In this document: piece by piece, positions 131 through 8,999 of the stretch
Layout of the letters: each line of letters starts with the position of its first letter
Numbering within the stretch: position 1 is the first letter of the stretch
Source of the DNA: a virus
DNA length: 10,288 nt
Strand: one strand, 5' to 3'
Virus genome (UHGV): UHGV-0129999
Made by a program: the position numbers and the translations under genes
Notes under the pieces: model-generated
Database searches by the model: none
Seen by the model: the letters and a program-made list of their open reading frames with translations, nothing else
What the model was told of the DNA's origin: nothing

Positions 131-3042
<2,912 letters not shown>

Positions 3043-3043
3043 G

Positions 3044-3066
3044 AAAAGCCCGGCGTTCGGGCTTTT
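3044..3066. terminator. Bidirectional rho-independent terminator between convergent operons
   Basis: AAAA-GCCCG-GCGTT-CGGGC-TTTT: 5-bp GC stem (3048-3052 / 3058-3062) flanked by an A-tract upstream and T-tract downstream, so it works on both strands; sits between stop of the + strand spike gene (3042) and stop of the - strand gene (3089). Confidence 0.6.
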
Positions 3067-3088
3067 CTGTTATGACGGGTTCAATTTT

Positions 3089-4087
3089 TTATCCGTTACC
3101 GCGCGACGGTTTCTGCGTGATAAACGTCTCAAGCATCTTTTCCGCAATTGCCGACCAGGTGTGACACTGGACCTTTTCAGCATTTTTCACGCGATCAACG
3201 CGAGCAATAACCTCATCCCAATCAATCCGCGACTTGATAACCATATGGTTCACCAAAGCCAGGCGATCTGGCGGAAGGCAATCGGGAGGCGTTAATACCA
3301 ACGCCCCACACATTGCCGCCTCAAGAACAGTTAATCCAAGGCTTTCGGGATGCGTAACAATAAAAACATCACTCTTACGCAATTCAGCTGCAAATTCGGT
3401 TGCTGGTACCGGCGTCCGTCTGTATGGAGTTACCGAAATATTCCCCGGATCAATGGTAACCAATCCGTCATCGGTCAACGTTCTGGCCTCATACGGAACA
3501 GTCAGACGCTGAAGGTTCATAAGGATACTTAAGGAGTGATCAAACCCACTAACATCAAATGCAGCGTGGTCTACAAAAATACGCAGAACATCGTCTGTTT
3601 TGGTTTCCAGATGGAACAGCTCCTGATTCGCTGCCCATCCAACATGTTTGTTAAAGCGATTATGACGCTCTAACCTGCCGGGATTATCCAGGTACCGCCA
3701 GGTATCATCGCGGACAGTAAAAGTAATATCAACTGGTGCCGAATCCAGCATAGAACCGTCGTATACCTGAGCTACCCATCCAGTGAATCGACGACGCAGT
3801 TGCACGCCTATTTCCCTGGGCACCGTAGTAAAATACCGCAATCCTGGCGCTAAAATGGCTTTCGCAGAACACGAGAGCGCAGCGGTCAACACAGCTTCAA
3901 CATAATCCTCCGGGCTTTCGACGCCGGGGGAATATGGACGATGGTATTGCAATGTTACCCCTGCCTCACTAAAGGCGCAGGCCAGGTTGTAAGCCCACAT
4001 TTCCGTATATGTTTTCACATCACTGATAGCTTCAAATTTTCGCCCAATGATCAGGATGTTCATCGGCTTTTCCTCATTCCATTGCAT
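3089..4087 (-). CDS. Putative GT-B fold glycosyltransferase (family 1/4-like), translationally coupled to the upstream helicase gene; occupies the position of P1 dbn (downstream of ban)
   Basis: 332-aa ORF. C-terminal region ESLGLTVLEAAMCGALVLTP matches the E-x7-E motif region of retaining GT-B glycosyltransferases (compare EGFGLxxLEAMAxGxPVI). Start ATG overlaps the helicase stop as TAATG (4085-4089). An alternative start at the ninth codon (ATG at 4063, MNILIIGRK) has a stronger GAGGAA Shine-Dalgarno. Confidence 0.6.
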   Translation of the reverse strand: MQWNEEKPMNILIIGRKFEAISDVKTYTEMWAYNLACAFSEAGVTLQYHRPYSPGVESPEDYVEAVLTAALSCSAKAILAPGLRYFTTVPREIGVQLRRRFTGWVAQVYDGSMLDSAPVDITFTVRDDTWRYLDNPGRLERHNRFNKHVGWAANQELFHLETKTDDVLRIFVDHAAFDVSGFDHSLSILMNLQRLTVPYEARTLTDDGLVTIDPGNISVTPYRRTPVPATEFAAELRKSDVFIVTHPESLGLTVLEAAMCGALVLTPPDCLPPDRLALVNHMVIKSRIDWDEVIARVDRVKNAEKVQCHTWSAIAEKMLETFITQKPSRGNG

Positions 4088-5451
4088 TAATAATCCTCTT
4101 GCCAGTCAGCACCAGCATAGTTATCAAACCGTGAGTATTGGCCGTTAAAAGCCAATCTCACCGTGCCAATTGGGCCATTTCGTTGCTTTCCGATAATTAC
4201 CTCGGCAATGCCCTTCATTTCGCTATCCGGGTGATAAACTTCGTCGCGATACAGAAACATGATCAGGTCTGCGTCCTGCTCAATTGCTCCTGATTCACGT
4301 AAATCTGAATTTACCGGTCGTTTGTCCGCACGCTGTTCAAGCGATCGATTAAGTTGTGACAATGCCACCACCGGTACTTGTAATTCCTTCGCCAACGCCT
4401 TCAGTGAGCGAGAAATCTCGGCAATTTCCAGCGTTCGGTTATCTTGCAGCTCGGGGACGCGCATAAGTTGCAGGTAGTCGATCATAATCATGCTCAAACC
4501 ACCATTTTCTTTATAAACACGACGAGCGCGGGAACGAAGCTCTGTAGGTGTCAGGGCGCTTGAGTCATCAATAAAAATATTCTGCTTGTCCAACAGAATC
4601 CCCATTGCGCCAGAAACCCGCGCCCAATCCTCGTCGTTAAGTTGCCCTGTTCGAATACGAGTCTGATCAACGCGTGCAAGAGAAGCCAGTGAGCGCATCA
4701 TCAGCTGGTGGCTCGGCATCTCAAGGCTAAAAACCAATACGGGCTTATCGTTACGGACTGCGGCATTTTCGACGAGATTCATCGCAAACGTAGTCTTCCC
4801 CATCGATGGGCGGGCGGCGACAATAATGAGATCGGACGCCTGAAGTCCTGCCGTCTTCTTATTGAGATCGGTAAATCCGGTATCAAGCCCCGTTACACCA
4901 TCATGCGGTCGCTGAAACAACTCTTCTATGCGAGATACCGTTGCATCGAGAATGCTGGCGATATCTTTTGGACCACTACCGCTCTTTTGTCGTTTTTCAG
5001 CTATTTCAAAAACGCGGCGCTCGGCCATATCCAGCAATTCATTGCTGCCCCTGCCATCCTGCGCATATCCAGCTTCGGCTATTTCATTTGCGACGGAAAT
5101 CATTTCACGAACAACCGCGCGTTCACGAACGATATCCGCATAAGCACAAATATTTGCCGCGCTGGGCGTGTTCTTTGACATCTCCGCAAGGTACGCAAAA
5201 CCACCGGCGCGTTCTAATTTACCGTTCTGTTCAAGTGCTTCAGCAAGTGTTATCAAATCAATCGGTTTGCCATGACTTAATAACCTCTCCATCTCACTGA
5301 AAATTTCACGATGAGCACTGGTATAAAAATCATCAGTAACTATACGATCTGCAACTTCATCCCAGCGGCAGTTATCAAGCATTAAGCCACCAAGTACAGC
5401 TTGTTCTGCACTAAGGGAATTTGGCATGGATTCAAGAGGGGATGCAGACAT
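4087..5451 (-). CDS. ban: Replicative DNA helicase, DnaB family (phage P1 Ban-like DnaB analogue)
   Basis: Protein is collinear with E. coli DnaB along its length (AEQAVLGGLMLDN, GFAYLAEMSKNTPSAANI, Walker A ARPSMGKTTFAMNLVENAA, IDYLQLMRVPELQDNRTLEIAEISRSLKALAKEL, SQLNRSLEQRADKRPVNSDLRESG) but diverges at the N-terminus and scattered positions, as expected for a phage paralogue. The ORF track starts at GTG 5457; ATG at 5451 is preferred because GGAG lies 5 nt upstream of it. Confidence 0.9.
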   Translation of the reverse strand: MSASPLESMPNSLSAEQAVLGGLMLDNCRWDEVADRIVTDDFYTSAHREIFSEMERLLSHGKPIDLITLAEALEQNGKLERAGGFAYLAEMSKNTPSAANICAYADIVRERAVVREMISVANEIAEAGYAQDGRGSNELLDMAERRVFEIAEKRQKSGSGPKDIASILDATVSRIEELFQRPHDGVTGLDTGFTDLNKKTAGLQASDLIIVAARPSMGKTTFAMNLVENAAVRNDKPVLVFSLEMPSHQLMMRSLASLARVDQTRIRTGQLNDEDWARVSGAMGILLDKQNIFIDDSSALTPTELRSRARRVYKENGGLSMIMIDYLQLMRVPELQDNRTLEIAEISRSLKALAKELQVPVVALSQLNRSLEQRADKRPVNSDLRESGAIEQDADLIMFLYRDEVYHPDSEMKGIAEVIIGKQRNGPIGTVRLAFNGQYSRFDNYAGADWQEDY

Positions 5452-5735
5452 TAGCACTCCACCCAGGCGTGCTGAATGTCAGATATAATCGGCATACTCA
5501 AATCACTCCTAACGATATGAGTCATCACCAGAAAATCAGGATTAATGCGCCGGACTCTTCCCGGCTGTCACACCGAATCGCCAGGATGGTGAGTCCCTGA
5601 ATCCGCTATCCTACCAACGGTGACTTGCACATTCCGGCTACCTGGTTTGTTGCCTGAGCTAGGGGAAAGGTTACCCCTTTAACGTCACCAGACCGCTAAC
5701 GACGCATGTGCCAGACGCCGTGTTACAACCAAATA

Positions 5736-5811
5736 TGGTGGCCCCTACCGGACTTGAACCGGTGACCGTGCGATTATGAGTCGCCAGCTCTAACCACTGA
5801 GCTAAAGGGCC
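5736..5811 (-). tRNA. tRNA-Ile (anticodon CAU, lysidine type; automated tools may label it tRNA-Met)
   Basis: Reverse complement GGCCCTTTAGCTCAGTGGTTAGAGCTGGCGACTCATAATCGCACGGTCACCGGTTCAAGTCCGGTAGGGGCCACCA (76 nt) folds as a canonical cloverleaf with encoded CCA; anticodon loop CUCAUAA; anticodon stem-loop nearly identical to E. coli ileX as recalled from memory. One G-A mismatch at the 27-43 pair. Confidence 0.85.
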
Positions 5812-5838
5812 GGATTACTGCCAATTTTGCTTACGCTT

Positions 5839-6666
5839 TTATTTCACCGGAACAAACGGAACAGCGGTATTACTGGTCATATACTGCGGTAATGTACCGT
5901 TCCATTTGTTGATCGCTTCCAACTCCATAACACCGGGGTTCTGGCGCAGAGCTTCACCACGTAAACGAATGGCATCAGCTTCGGCCTGGGCTTTTGTGCG
6001 AATAGCATCAGCCTGTCCGGCAGCTTCCGCGCGCAGCATGTTGGCCTCTGCTTCACGTTGTTTGACCTCTTGCTCGCGTTGCAGGGTTTTTTGGTTTGCC
6101 GTGACTTTGGCGTTAATACTGTCAATAACTGTTGGCGGGTATTCTGGCTTACCTACATAAGAGAGGCTCATCACCTGAATGCCGATTGGCGTCATTTCTT
6201 CCTGAATGTCTTTAAGGGCTGCATCAAGCAATTCGGATTTGCCACCGTCGATAAATTTGTCGGTTGTCATTTTGCTGGCTAACCGGTTCAGAGCATCTGC
6301 AACCTTCTGGCGTAGATCGGTATCAGTAATATCATCTACACCTTTGCGATAGGTCTGAAATACCGTTGTGACTTTTGCTGGATCAACCTTGTAGGCTACG
6401 CCGATGTGGTAACCAATGGTTGTTCCGTCGCTCATCTGGAAGCTGAACGGCTCATCGTATGTCTTCATTTGCTTAAAGGTCGGGAAGATATAAACTTCAG
6501 TATTCAAGCCTGTCCAGTAGCGACCAACGCCAACTACTTCACCGATACCTTTATCATCCCCCAGCTTATTTACTTTGATCCCTACGTTACCTGGCTCTAC
6601 CCGATCGCATCCGGTCAGACATAAAGAACCCAAAATAATCGCTGCACTAATCAACGTTTTTTTCAT
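5839..6666 (-). CDS. SPFH/Band-7 (stomatin/prohibitin-like) domain lipoprotein
   Basis: 275 aa; N-terminal signal peptide with lipobox (LCLTGC); central region typical of SPFH domains followed by a long Ala/Glu/Gln/Arg-rich coiled-coil tail (QREQEVKQREAEANMLRAEAAGQADAIRTKAQAEADAIRLRGEAL). AGGAAA Shine-Dalgarno upstream of ATG 6666. May correspond to P1 plp (from memory of the P1 map, not verified). Confidence 0.8.
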   Translation of the reverse strand: MKKTLISAAIILGSLCLTGCDRVEPGNVGIKVNKLGDDKGIGEVVGVGRYWTGLNTEVYIFPTFKQMKTYDEPFSFQMSDGTTIGYHIGVAYKVDPAKVTTVFQTYRKGVDDITDTDLRQKVADALNRLASKMTTDKFIDGGKSELLDAALKDIQEEMTPIGIQVMSLSYVGKPEYPPTVIDSINAKVTANQKTLQREQEVKQREAEANMLRAEAAGQADAIRTKAQAEADAIRLRGEALRQNPGVMELEAINKWNGTLPQYMTSNTAVPFVPVK

Positions 6667-6883
6667 TAATTAATTTCCTGGTTTTTTCACGAAAAAAGAC
6701 TACTGCGAAAGCTGGGTAAATGAGCGCGAGAAGGACTCCCAACAATACAAGTATTGTGCTGTTAGATGAGATCATATTTGGCAAAAGCCAAACATACAGA
6801 ACCAGTGACACAATCAAACAGAGGACGGCATAAATATATAACCGCACCCATAGCGTTCGACATTTGTTCGGATTGTTCTGCAT
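6647..6883 (-). CDS. Small two-helix integral membrane protein, overlapping the start of the SPFH lipoprotein gene
   Basis: 78-aa ORF with two hydrophobic stretches (LYIYAVLCLIVSLVLYVWLL and ILVLLGVLLALIYPAFAVVFF); GGAGTGAGAGG upstream of ATG 6883; 3' end overlaps the downstream lipoprotein gene by 20 nt, suggesting co-expression. May correspond to P1 upl. Confidence 0.55.
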   Translation of the reverse strand: MQNNPNKCRTLWVRLYIYAVLCLIVSLVLYVWLLPNMISSNSTILVLLGVLLALIYPAFAVVFFREKTRKLINEKNVD

Positions 6884-7064
6884 CCTCTCACTCCATTATT
6901 TAACGAATAAAAAAGCTGCGGTGCCGGGTGCCTCCCGGTGTCCTTTGGCTGGTTATCCACCGTGGACGGGGAAACAAGGAGAAATGAATGGACTGATATA
7001 ACCATTTCCCCGCGTGCGCTTAGCCGCATTCACCGCAACGGAAAGAGCATTCTTGGTGGACCTG

Positions 7065-7088
7065 TAGATTGGGATATGAACCCGTTAC
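7065..7088. repeat. 24-bp motif TAGATTGGGATATGAACCCGTTAC, copy 1 of 2 (plus a partial third copy at 7901..7917)
   Basis: Direct observation: 23/24 identity with 7344..7367; core GGG-ATATGA-CCC is an interrupted palindrome, and on the - strand reads GGGTTCATATCCC (tRNA T-arm-like). Confidence 0.5.
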
Positions 7089-7343
7089 AGGAGAATGCTC
7101 TTACCTGTTACGTGCTCCGTTTCGTGGAGCTAACGGCGGGTGATCAGACCGCACCAGACTGGACTTATTTCAGCGTTATGCTCATGCCAGAGAATCAAAC
7201 TGTGATGGTCGGTGCTGAACTCCGACACAGGGTTGTAGCAAGCCCCGCAAAGCGCGCACTACTGTAGTTGCGGCACATCAGCCTGTGCATTCACCACAAT
7301 GTTGAGAACACTGGTTGTCACGCTGCCTCGCGACATTTATTCA

Positions 7344-7367
7344 TAGATTGGGATATGACCCCGTTAC
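7344..7367. repeat. 24-bp motif TAGATTGGGATATGACCCCGTTAC, copy 2 of 2
   Basis: Direct observation; flanked by an inverted repeat pair (AATGTTGAGAACA at 7298..7310 and TGTTCTCAACGTT at about 7363..7375). Confidence 0.5.
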
Positions 7368-7533
7368 GCCAATGTTCTCAACGTTGTAGTGCCGGTTACG
7401 GTTCCGGCCAGGCCTCTTCCTCAACGGGGTGTTCTCCATACGGACTACCGTTTATTGGTCGTTCCTGCGGTTTATGTTGTGAAGCCAGATGCTTATCTTC
7501 TGGTTGCTTCTAAGAGCTGCACTTCATCACAAC

Positions 7534-7607
7534 GGTAAGGGTACTTCGTAGGGATTCGAACCCTCTGCCAAGCTCGGCGATCTCCGACGTCGCAAAATAC
7601 CCTTACC
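7534..7607 (-). ncRNA. Non-canonical tRNA-like element (possible pseudo-tRNA or structured RNA) directly 3' of tRNA-Thr
   Basis: The - strand reads GGTAAGGGTATTTTGCGACGTCGGAGATCGCCGAGCTTGGCAGAGGGTTCGAATCCCTACGAAGTACCCTTACC (74 nt): perfect 10-bp terminal helix (GGTAAGGGTA / TACCCTTACC), canonical T-loop GGGTTCGAATCCC, but no recognisable D-arm or anticodon arm and no encoded CCA. Lies 8 nt after tRNA-Thr. Confidence 0.3.
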
Positions 7608-7615
7608 TGTTGTGC

Positions 7616-7692
7616 TGGTGCCGATTAACGGACTCGAACCGCTGACATCCTGCTTACAAGGCAGGCGCTCTACCAACTGAGCTAAACCGGCA
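7616..7692 (-). tRNA. tRNA-Thr (anticodon UGU)
   Basis: Reverse complement TGCCGGTTTAGCTCAGTTGGTAGAGCGCCTGCCTTGTAAGCAGGATGTCAGCGGTTCGAGTCCGTTAATCGGCACCA (77 nt): 7-bp acceptor stem, D-arm GCTCAGTTGGTAGAGC, anticodon loop CUUGUAA, T-arm GGTTCGAGTCC, encoded CCA. Confidence 0.85.
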
Positions 7693-7693
7693 T

Positions 7694-7769
7694 TGGCGAT
7701 GGTGGATGGATTTGAACCATCGACCCGTTGATTAACAGTCAACCGCTCTAACCGCTGAGCTACACCATC
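7694..7769 (-). tRNA. tRNA-Asn (anticodon GUU)
   Basis: Reverse complement GATGGTGTAGCTCAGCGGTTAGAGCGGTTGACTGTTAATCAACGGGTCGATGGTTCAAATCCATCCACCATCGCCA (76 nt): canonical cloverleaf, anticodon loop CUGUUAA, encoded CCA; separated from tRNA-Thr by 1 nt. Confidence 0.85.
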
Positions 7770-8000
7770 ACTTGCCGGGTACGTCTCCGGCGAGGGCTTC
7801 CACCTCCGTATGCTTTTCGGCGCACCGCGCCCTGGCTGCAATTCGGTAACAGGGGATGCATAACCCTGGCTTCCAGCGTGATTAGCGCTTTCAGCATGAC
7901 GGGATATACCCGTAAATTCGTGGAACTGTACCCAAAGTGCTGTTAAGCACCGCTGTTACGCTGAAAAGAAGACGCAACAGGAAAGGACGCTGACCAACAG

Positions 8001-8537
8001 ATGGCCCCTTATGCAGATCTGTCAATGCTGCTTCAACTCGATATTGGTTGGGATGTTTACTGCCGTGCCAATGAGCGAGAAGTTTCAGAACTGCCGATCT
8101 CTATTGCCATTGGTGATGTGAATATTACTAAATCGCTTGAGGACGCTGTTAACGCGCTTAATACATCAAGTTTAGTCGCTGCTATGGGGGAGATTAACCA
8201 GACCCTTAACACTGGCTCAGGAAGCTCGTCAGGCTCTGGTTCAGGCGGCGGCACTGCCACTCCCCCACCAGCACTAACAGAAGAGCAAATTGAATCTCTG
8301 AAAGTAGCAACTGAACAGTTTGGGGTTGTTTTCAACCAGACAACAGCGCCCACAACTGCGTTACAACAGCAGTATGAACGAGCGAAGGAAAGCGCCAACG
8401 TAGCCATAACTGCTTATAACCATGCTATCGGTACCGCGCTTGCGGAAGCATCAGCAAATAAGGTCAGCACAGCCAGCGCAGTTGCCGTTTTGGTTCCTGA
8501 TTCTGTTCTTGATGAATTAAACAAAGCGGCACAGTAA
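8001..8537 (+). CDS. Hypothetical two-domain protein with a Gly/Ser-rich linker (GSGSSSGSGSGGG); function unknown
   Basis: 178-aa ORF on the strand of the downstream genes; no strong Shine-Dalgarno at the ATG at 8001, so the start is uncertain. No TM segment or recognised motif. Confidence 0.45.
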   Translation: MAPYADLSMLLQLDIGWDVYCRANEREVSELPISIAIGDVNITKSLEDAVNALNTSSLVAAMGEINQTLNTGSGSSSGSGSGGGTATPPPALTEEQIESLKVATEQFGVVFNQTTAPTTALQQQYERAKESANVAITAYNHAIGTALAEASANKVSTASAVAVLVPDSVLDELNKAAQ

Positions 8538-8576
8538 CAAAGGACTTCATTGATAATTTTTCTTCAGGAGGAAGGC

Positions 8577-8999
8577 ATGTCATTCTTTTCTACGTTAAAA
8601 ACAGCTTTGTCTTTGAAGGAGAAACTTGCTGCTACTGGTGTTCTTGTTCTGATTTGCGCACTTGTTGGTGCTGGGTTTGCATGGGAACGTCATCAGCTAA
8701 AGCAAGCCATGGAGAAAATTGGCAGTCTTGATCAGGCTGTTAAGGAACGTGATAAGTCAATAATGGATCTTAACCAGACCATTGAGACGATGAACAAAGC
8801 AGAGCAACATTTTCACAGCCAGGAAGTGAAAAATGAATCAGAACAAGCCAAATATGCTGACAGGCAAATGGAACGAAAAGCTGAAGTTCAGAAACAACTG
8901 GTTGCGGCGGGTAATGTTCGCCAGCGCATTCCTGCTGACACTCAGCGGTTGCTCCGGCAGTCGATCAGCGAATTTAACGCCGACGCCGACAAAGGTTAA
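8577..8999 (+). CDS. Rz-like inner-membrane spanin (i-spanin)-like protein: N-terminal TM anchor plus periplasmic coiled coil
   Basis: AGGAGGAAGG Shine-Dalgarno before ATG 8577 (the ORF track's 8550 start is TTG). Single N-terminal TM (LAATGVLVLICALVGAGFAW) then charged helical region; C-terminal QKQLVAAGNVRQRIPADTQRL resembles the lambda Rz segment RDDVAAGRRRLHIKA. Contains an embedded +1-frame lipoprotein gene. Confidence 0.6.
   Translation: MSFFSTLKTALSLKEKLAATGVLVLICALVGAGFAWERHQLKQAMEKIGSLDQAVKERDKSIMDLNQTIETMNKAEQHFHSQEVKNESEQAKYADRQMERKAEVQKQLVAAGNVRQRIPADTQRLLRQSISEFNADADKG

Follow-up and report, generated by a model that had tools for sequence, protein, structure and literature searches.

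In this study, we analysed a stretch of 10,288 nucleotides of the UHGV virus genome UHGV-0129999 (in the following, the window) and, within it, two overlapping genes on the minus strand that encode a small two-helix membrane protein and a lipoprotein of the SPFH/Band 7 superfamily. The whole window is that of a P1-like phage-plasmid and matches, over most of its length and at 98–100% identity, Escherichia phage RCS47, further Punavirus records and E. coli plasmids, CP056619 among them. The upstream gene (6647..6883, minus strand) starts with ATG and codes for 78 residues with two transmembrane (TM) helices, as judged from the list of open reading frames (ORFs), hydropathy, a match to phrog_1130 and a family alignment; we refer to its product as the hairpin protein. 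A Shine–Dalgarno-like stretch read from the sequence, GGAGTGAGAGG (6884..6894, minus strand), directly abuts its start codon at 6883..6881. The downstream gene (5839..6666, minus strand), likewise starting with ATG, codes for the SPFH/Band_7 lipoprotein of 275 residues, an assignment based on Pfam, phrog_200, AlphaFold2 and Foldseek. Both frames share 20 nt (6647..6666, minus strand), including an A7 run at 6657–6663. A previous sequence-only reading of this locus had listed the coordinates, strand, overlap and domain calls of the two ORFs, all of them correctly, and had considered the two proteins a functional pair. The latter is now borne out by conserved gene order in at least eight phage types, by natural fusions of the two proteins and by purifying selection on the smaller one.

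The 275-residue protein is a member of the SPFH/Band 7 superfamily. Residues 22–208 (nt 6043–6603) match Pfam Band_7/SPFH (PF01145) at E = 9.7e-31 with 107.6 bits, the cut-off being 23.6, and the protein additionally matches phrog_200 (‘lipoprotein’) at 2e-113. Its N-terminus, MKKTLISAAIILGSLCLTGC followed by DRVEPG, constitutes a lipoprotein signal peptide (residues 1–20), in which LCLTGC fits the lipobox pattern [LVI][ASTVI][GAS]C and renders the protein a predicted Lgt/LspA substrate. The lipobox cysteine, Cys20, is encoded at 6609..6607 and sits three residues ahead of the first conserved SPFH strand, with Asp21 (6606..6604) as the +2 residue. In the AlphaFold2 model, which was built on 30 homologues and reaches a predicted local distance difference test score (pLDDT) of 74.5, an alpha/beta SPFH domain (residues 20–175) is followed by a single 65-residue helix (178–242, nt 5941–6135) and a short helix. 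The long helix corresponds to what had been described as a coiled-coil tail, and the earlier description of an SPFH lipoprotein with a long helix thus holds. The C-terminus carries a conserved motif, LEAINKWNGTLPQYM. Against the PDB, Foldseek aligned the protein over its full length with erlin1/2, HflK, HflC, prohibitin and stomatin (about 1e-13, probability 1.00, 14–20% identity); flotillin, the vault protein and QmcA–YbbJ (8z5g) ranked lower, the last well below HflK/C and erlin. Matches at the level of sequence, in the PDB and in NCBIfam, were restricted to HflK, HflC and prohibitin-2 and were all weak. Assignment as an HflK or HflC equivalog was rejected, with 24.7 bits for TIGR01932 (hflC) against the required 134.4 and 23.3 bits for TIGR01933 (hflK) against 159.4.

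The lipobox cysteine is kept in 28 of 30 close enteric homologues; of the 30, 23 have Asp at +2 and 5 have Glu. From the sequences compared, the phage SPFH proteins form one lipobox-bearing family. The idea that Asp at +2 is required in split but not in fused forms was considered and discarded, as split forms in the wider family carry Thr, Ser, Asp or Gly. In two widespread enteric lineages (P0113 and P0118, the latter on 175 contigs), Tyr replaces the lipobox cysteine (IIGYDRVEPG). These proteins could therefore not be lipidated and are probably anchored by an uncleaved signal peptide. Database names for the SPFH gene can be misleading, with ‘serine protease’, ‘transposase fusion protein’ and ‘transposase’ used in records of Stx, Pseudomonas and Ruegeria phages.

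The 78-residue protein contains hydrophobic segments at about residues 10–39 and 37–65 and basic residues at both ends, from which an N-in/C-in hairpin is predicted. It matches phrog_1130 (‘membrane protein’) at 6e-16 and no Pfam family above threshold. Between the helices lies a short conserved loop, LLPNMISSNST (residues 33–43, nt about 6755–6787), which in the family alignment takes the consensus [LV][LV]P-x-[LM]-[IV]-S-x-x-[ST] (LLPxMISxxS); P35, S39, G49 and P57 are invariant even though proteins down to 21–27% identity are included. Compared with the copy in a Salmonella P1-like element (75% DNA identity), the hairpin ORF shows synonymous and non-synonymous divergences of dS 0.89 and dN 0.19, thus a dN/dS of 0.21. 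A profile search with the hairpin family yielded 124 clusters at 90% identity, nearly all of 55–92 residues, and the gene is usually unannotated in RefSeq and GenBank relatives. Since purifying selection, the conserved signature, synteny, natural fusions and the fusion found in a P1-type variant all agree, the small ORF is, on the evidence of sequence comparison, a real gene whose product is a dedicated partner of the SPFH protein. The expectation that this partner would be of the NfeD type was not upheld: a homology search found no NfeD (PF01957) or OB-fold Pfam match at E ≤ 0.1, and 78 residues are too short for such a protein. The structure and homology comparison that the sequence-only reading had suggested for both proteins hence supported the SPFH fold of the larger one and placed the smaller one with phrog_1130 instead of NfeD.

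Pairing of the two genes extends far beyond the P1 group, with synteny preserved across at least eight phage types, mostly with the hairpin gene right before the SPFH gene. The two are adjacent in the P2-like phage P88, the lambdoid phage phiP27 and an Stx2 phage, where the hairpin gene is mostly unannotated, as well as in a Salmonella P1-like plasmid, in SSU5-like phage-plasmids (adjoining gp32, exonuclease and RecA), in an N4-like Klebsiella phage, in Burkholderia phage vB_RY5 and in a prophage of the alphaproteobacterium Epibacterium ulvae. In the T7-like Desulfovibrio phage ProddE the pair follows straight after the DNA polymerase gene. If the search is seeded from the small protein, a Band_7 gene is found immediately downstream at all ten of ten independent lambdoid prophage places in Enterobacter and Klebsiella. 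The hairpin gene stands one to two genes upstream of the SPFH gene in rV5-like PVP-SE1 and LUZ24-like Pseudomonas phage TL, and a partner was weakly recognisable in phiEa104 and unrecognisable in phiCbK. The 20-nt overlap is peculiar to the P1-type cassette, while most relatives use a 4-nt ATGA overlap. By tblastn, the SPFH family is present in 392 isolated phage genomes, many of them from virulent phages (N4-, T7-, rV5-, FelixO1- and LUZ24-like phages among others); among the hosts of these 392 are Pseudomonas, Klebsiella, Erwinia, Escherichia, Burkholderia, Caulobacter, Salmonella, Prevotella, Ruegeria and Desulfovibrio. An unannotated, conserved mini-ORF of 35 codons with a single TM helix, MKSNRELNRVKLILILATVL..., was additionally seen just upstream of the hairpin gene in phiP27 and an Stx2 phage (L003 3516–3623 and L005 4504–4611, minus strand).

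In dozens of metagenomic phage proteins the hairpin and the SPFH part are joined in one polypeptide. Fusions were searched among cluster representatives at 50% identity, of which 222 had a match with the SPFH protein at E ≤ 1e-30. An N-terminal extension of 60–110 residues is present in about one eighth of the best 150 of these 222, a share that is possibly overestimated, as cluster representatives may favour long sequences. A hidden Markov model built from enteric small proteins only recognised the hairpin domain at the N-terminus in 14 of the 150 best representatives (E < 1e-4) and at the C-terminus in one. Because their linkers are long and diverse, we take the hairpin–SPFH fusions, as judged by sequence, to be genuine. 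When 24 fused proteins were aligned, the Pro and Ser of the hairpin and the cysteine of the lipobox (column Cys81) proved invariant, the cysteine now being internal and located after a third hydrophobic helix. With the lipobox Cys invariant even in this internal position, cleavage of a fused precursor by signal peptidase II is possible. The AlphaFold2 model of a fused protein (pLDDT 84.8) places helices at residues 2–26, 31–54 and 58–79 ahead of the SPFH domain; this modelled arrangement agrees with an N-in/C-in hairpin and an SPFH domain on the outside. Three fused proteins checked by context reside on phage-like contigs among genes for replication and nucleotide metabolism, and the fused proteins taken through a cluster look-up were all singletons from read-archive assemblies. 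The reverse order was seen in the metagenomic protein P0252, in which a lipobox-SPFH part precedes the hairpin domain (residues 290–333) in a single ORF, suggesting that in some lineages the gene order is SPFH, then hairpin.

The P1-type cassettes themselves vary at the point where the frames meet. A first scan of viral contigs, which returned only loci at least 92% identical, was used for counting variants. One of the P1-type variants, P0001 (98% identical), contains an in-frame hairpin–SPFH fusion of 347 residues, since its A7 run has lost one A, and in other variants the hairpin ORF ends in ...FFREKNQEIN and the overlap is reduced to just 1 nt. Since both kinds of variant exist, the junction is mutationally labile. 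Programmed frameshifting at A7 was considered and rejected: a −1 slip meets a stop after two codons, and the ORFs fuse only by a 1-nt deletion. The P0001 fusion is therefore treated as a mutation or sequencing variant and not as a mechanism.

In the P1 lineage, the two genes form an exchangeable cassette of about 1.1 kb (about 5821..6916, minus strand), delimited by blastn of the window against P1, for which homology is restricted to 803–5820 and 6917–8010. The cassette takes the place of P1 tciA-tciB-tciC, between the leader tRNAs of the ban operon and trnI-ban-dbn; the shared flanks stop at ‘...cacccggcaccgca’ and resume at ‘cagtaatccggccc’, the start of trnI. P1 tciA belongs to the TerB family, tciB and tciC code for small membrane peptides, and tciABC is annotated by homology as tellurite or colicin resistance. 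A literature search on tciA gave only unrelated imaging-archive papers. Among 599 PLSDB plasmids matching the slot by megablast, 188 hold the SPFH cassette; the sampled remainder mostly hold tci, a few a TciC-like peptide alone. The whole cassette is found in 192 of 5426 complete E. coli genomes, and an SPFH homologue is detectable at the DNA level in 460 of them, mostly in chromosomal prophages. As a third allele of the slot, we observed a TciC-like single-TM peptide of 43 residues, MMDFWAFADKNPGW..., alone beside the tRNA in D6-like E. coli plasmids (L101 1706–1837 in NZ_CP116996 and L102 1717–1848 in NZ_CP157120, minus strand), with other genes downstream instead of ban.

Downstream of the cassette, 27 nt past the SPFH stop codon, follows a tRNA with anticodon CAT (5736..5811, minus strand; ARAGORN, Rfam and P1 annotation), which ARAGORN calls Met and which is the equivalent of P1 trnI, annotated as tRNA-Ile2. 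Next come ban (4087..5457, minus strand), a DnaB-type replicative helicase gene by P1 annotation and by Pfam (DnaB_C 1e-107, DnaB 4e-35), and dbn (3089..4087, minus strand), a glycosyltransferase-like gene that is the last of the unit (phrog_2518; P1 and RCS47 annotation) and scores 25.1 bits against Pfam Glycos_transf_1, just under the cut-off of 26.4. Upstream of the cassette lie the leader tRNAs of the ban operon, tRNA-Thr (7616..7691, minus strand) and tRNA-Asn (7694..7769, minus strand), both supported by ARAGORN, Rfam and P1 annotation; in the Rfam scan of the window these three tRNAs were the only matches. On the opposite strand, the plp ORF (7268–7513, plus strand) is cut short by an early stop codon (GCF*ELH; P1 Plp has GCFKELH) and comprises 81 codons compared with 125, so it may be a pseudogene, or the P1 annotation of plp may be doubtful.

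As had been noted, the pair precedes trnI and the helicase gene on a shared strand, and in P1 the slot is part of the C1-controlled ban operon. According to the P1 annotation (AF234173), it is situated between the C1-controlled Pban/Oban and ban, which is the downstream gene of the transcription unit that holds it. In CP056619, whose cassette is 100% identical to that of the window, the bivalent Oban C1 operator is intact (L090 8522–8549). A scan for promoters and terminators over 5400–8600 gave counts no higher than chance and revealed neither a promoter or terminator specific to the cassette nor a terminator-like site between the leader tRNAs and the cassette. The earlier placement of the pair in the same operon as the helicase is thus valid for the lineage; it is not readable from the window itself, because a deletion of 4.35 kb removed the ban promoter and operator. 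The alignment breakpoints put its junction at 8009..8010. The missing segment (L090 8106–12459), which is present in all intact relatives, contains Oban/Pban, dam/dmt, rdgC/hrdC and uhr. Its loss also leaves the next gene truncated (window ORF 8001..8537). The junction shows a 2-nt microhomology (TT) and was found in no PLSDB plasmid. Beyond P1, the pair shares its orientation with early or replication genes in every context examined, often with stop/start overlaps at either end, for example in the early-left arm from cI to int of lambdoid prophages, in the P88 early operon from cox to A and in the polymerase region of a T7-like phage. In lambdoid, P2-, SSU5-, N4- and T7-like phages there is often no intergenic room for a promoter of its own. 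From this gene order, i.e. the C1-controlled slot and the co-direction with early and replication genes, we infer that the module is expressed during lytic development and not from the resting prophage. The suggestion of a prophage-encoded module acting from the lysogen is consequently left unsupported, given the slot behind Oban, the early and replication contexts and the many virulent carriers. If the module plays any role in exclusion or membrane stress, this would possibly be in the infected cell and not in the lysogen.

Gene reality, pairing and fusion, fold, lipobox, cassette swap and genomic contexts are shown by the sequence and structure comparisons, and on these we propose a model in which the module is an early-expressed, periplasm-facing SPFH cage on the inner membrane that brings its own transmembrane hairpin. 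We hold this model tentatively, at somewhat less than an even chance. The hairpin protein would reside in the inner membrane with both ends in the cytoplasm and the conserved loop LLPxMISxxS in the periplasm. The SPFH protein would be exported and lipidated at Cys20. According to the E. coli sorting rule, Asp at +2 keeps a lipoprotein in the inner membrane, and Asp21 would hold the SPFH protein there in enteric hosts. The SPFH domain and the long helix would then lie on the periplasmic face of the inner membrane, a placement proposed because of Asp at +2, the inner-membrane hairpin partner and the three-TM fused forms. Both proteins would be made at about 1:1 from overlapping, translationally coupled genes, and as a single polypeptide in many phages. 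Every solved SPFH protein forms a ring or cage on a membrane, and by this analogy the two proteins may assemble as a ring or cage that fences a patch of the inner membrane. The hairpin would provide the transmembrane palisade that HflK/C, prohibitin and erlin have in their own N-termini, in what could be termed a ‘split HflK-like’ design. The module would be an accessory cassette expressed with early and replication genes in lytic development, in P1 relatives from inside the C1-repressed ban operon. With low confidence, we suggest that it corrals or shields a machine of the host inner membrane in the infected cell. FtsH is the leading candidate for this client, again with low confidence and by analogy, because it is the client of the closest SPFH relatives, which share the outside-facing orientation, and because it is universal and fits the broad host range. 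Ranked by our expectation, control of an FtsH-type protease precedes a function in membrane integrity or lysis timing, which precedes exclusion, all with low and similar probability.

A more far-reaching form of this model would describe a pan-phage, early ‘membrane organelle’, i.e. a self-contained periplasmic cage on the host inner membrane, shared by unrelated phage families. The cage would neutralise a universal host function, such as FtsH-type quality control or membrane-targeting abortive-infection effectors, or exclude competitors, and the fused precursor would be cut at its internal lipobox by signal peptidase II to release subunits at 1:1. Taken as a whole, we consider this reading unlikely. 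Several points limit or weigh against the tentative model of an inner-membrane cage as well. The argument from Asp at +2 to inner-membrane retention is valid in enteric hosts only; in the wider family, represented by sequences without taxonomy, the +2 residue is mostly Thr, Ser or Gly, which speaks neither for nor against the placement. The proposed expression timing is read from gene order, and the window contains no C1 operator, with no convincing replacement promoter in the scan. The link to FtsH is drawn by family resemblance, with scores far under the HflK/HflC equivalog cut-offs. Finally, the Pasteurella multocida prophage protein PM0222 (Pmorf0222), HflK/C-like and compared here by description and not by sequence, is reported in outer-membrane vesicles (OMVs), which points to a different location and role.

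As the sequence-only reading had suggested for superinfection exclusion, the module might instead serve exclusion or another envelope defence: it would keep other phages, or colicins, from passing the inner membrane, acting from the prophage or in early infection. The predicted position of the module, facing the periplasm at the inner membrane, would suit such a function. Early phage lipoproteins and small two-TM proteins are known to act in exclusion, as exemplified by the T5 lipoprotein Llp and by T4 Imm and Sp. The tellurite/colicin resistance annotation of the tciABC genes that alternatively occupy the P1 slot points the same way, and virulent carriers are compatible, as virulent phages encode exclusion genes too. 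However, neither protein has a PHROG exclusion family; a scan of PADLOC-DB returned nothing for the SPFH protein and only a chance-level hit (0.023) for the hairpin protein. Temperate phages carry the pair within repressed early operons, not as a moron with a promoter of its own. Moreover, the phages that share the module use unrelated receptors and entry routes, which argues against a receptor- or channel-specific block, and SPFH cages span small membrane patches only. Exclusion seems unlikely to us. A helper of membrane integrity or lysis timing is another reading in which a cage is retained: it would stabilise the inner membrane and the proton-motive force in the manner of PspA or flotillin, and would thereby keep holins from triggering too early or abortive-infection effectors from damaging the membrane. 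The location among early and middle genes of many virulent and temperate phages fits this, as does the alternative TerB-family cassette, which is likewise associated with membrane stress. Bacterial SPFH proteins have been tied to membrane stress tolerance, for instance HflKC with aminoglycoside or oxidative stress (PMC10434171). On the other hand, no lysis cassette was linked to the pair in the contexts examined, and the hairpin resembles class II holins or pinholins in size and topology only, with no PHROG holin match. On balance, a helper function of this kind seems unlikely to us, to much the same degree as exclusion.

Two further explanations dispense with the pair as a unit. In one of them, the SPFH protein would be a surface or OMV lipoprotein of lysogenic conversion that acts on the animal host, with the small ORF incidental. 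Its precedent is PM0222, which was found in OMVs, signals through TLR1/2 and contributes to virulence (PMC9872710). Yet 28 of 30 enteric homologues have an acidic +2 residue (Asp or Glu), conservation or fusion of the partner, a predicted inner-membrane hairpin, is obligate, and the module is carried by environmental and virulent phages of Desulfovibrio, Caulobacter and Ruegeria, while the likeness to PM0222 is one of description. Because of the partner, the Asp at +2 and the virulent carriers, we regard a conversion role as the least likely of the roles discussed and as very improbable. In the other explanation, the small ORF would be a chance ORF or mere leader and the SPFH lipoprotein would act by itself, which could account for the missing annotation in RefSeq and several GenBank records. 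A dN/dS of 0.21 at a dS of 0.89, a motif kept down to 21–27% identity across a family of 124 clusters, and in-frame natural fusions with invariant hairpin residues leave this reading next to no probability, and as far as comparative data reach it is refuted.

For about 20 years, papers on phage genomes have recorded SPFH genes and called their role unclear (PMC1524935, PMC8540360, PMC13239085). Our literature search retrieved no functional study of a phage SPFH pair and no paper on the hairpin partner or the fusions. New here are the lipobox family, its dedicated un-named two-helix partner, their adjacency or fusion across temperate and virulent phages, and the setting among early and replication genes. 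A vague annotation is thereby turned into a defined two-component system, for which the invariant loop Pro and Ser, the lipobox Cys and the natural fusions provide handles. P1-like phage-plasmids, which naturally carry either the SPFH cassette or tciABC in one slot, offer a tractable model. If the client is indeed FtsH or a defence effector, the module would represent a widespread mechanism of host takeover or counter-defence; if it is something else, the pair would still be a compact system for studying the construction of SPFH cages.

Among known systems, T4 Imm and Sp, T5 Llp and Cor are comparable in being small two-TM proteins of the inner membrane and/or lipoproteins made early, but they are not SPFH scaffolds, and no homology to them was found with PHROG or PADLOC. 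The P1 tciABC genes share the identical slot, strand and flanks in the ban operon leader and the combination of one larger protein with small membrane peptide(s); they have no sequence relationship to the pair, and TerB is cytoplasmic or peripheral. PM0222 is likewise a prophage-encoded, HflK/C-like SPFH protein, and its TLR1/2 agonism suggests lipidation, but it was reported as an OMV-associated virulence factor (PMC9872710), a comparison made by description only. Closer parallels exist in SPFH–NfeD operons (QmcA–YbbJ, YqiK–YqiJ and, with an archaeal stomatin, PH1511–PH1510), in which the gene of a small membrane protein also lies immediately upstream of and overlaps the SPFH gene, the partner would likewise be located at the cage, and fused forms occur as in the phage family. 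In contrast to these, the phage partner consists of two TM helices and short tails (55–92 residues) without NfeD or OB-fold, and the phage SPFH domain is predicted to be periplasmic and lipid-anchored, whereas those of QmcA and YqiK are cytoplasmic and TM-anchored. With HflK/HflC–FtsH of E. coli and its eukaryotic counterparts, prohibitin–mAAA and erlin, the phage protein shares the SPFH fold, the long helix and a C-terminal cap motif, and they provide its best structural and only sequence-level matches. An N-proximal membrane anchor right before the first SPFH strand is a further common trait, and a non-cytoplasmic SPFH domain, predicted for the phage protein from the signal peptide, the lipobox and the topology of the fused forms, would be another. 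The phage system differs in being phage-encoded, in its identity of only 14–20%, in having one SPFH gene in place of a K/C heteropair whose members each possess an N-terminal TM helix, and in using a lipid anchor instead of that helix, with the TM part supplied by a separate or fused two-helix hairpin. The module is hence closest to HflK/C in predicted orientation and architecture, and to the SPFH–NfeD operons in gene organisation.

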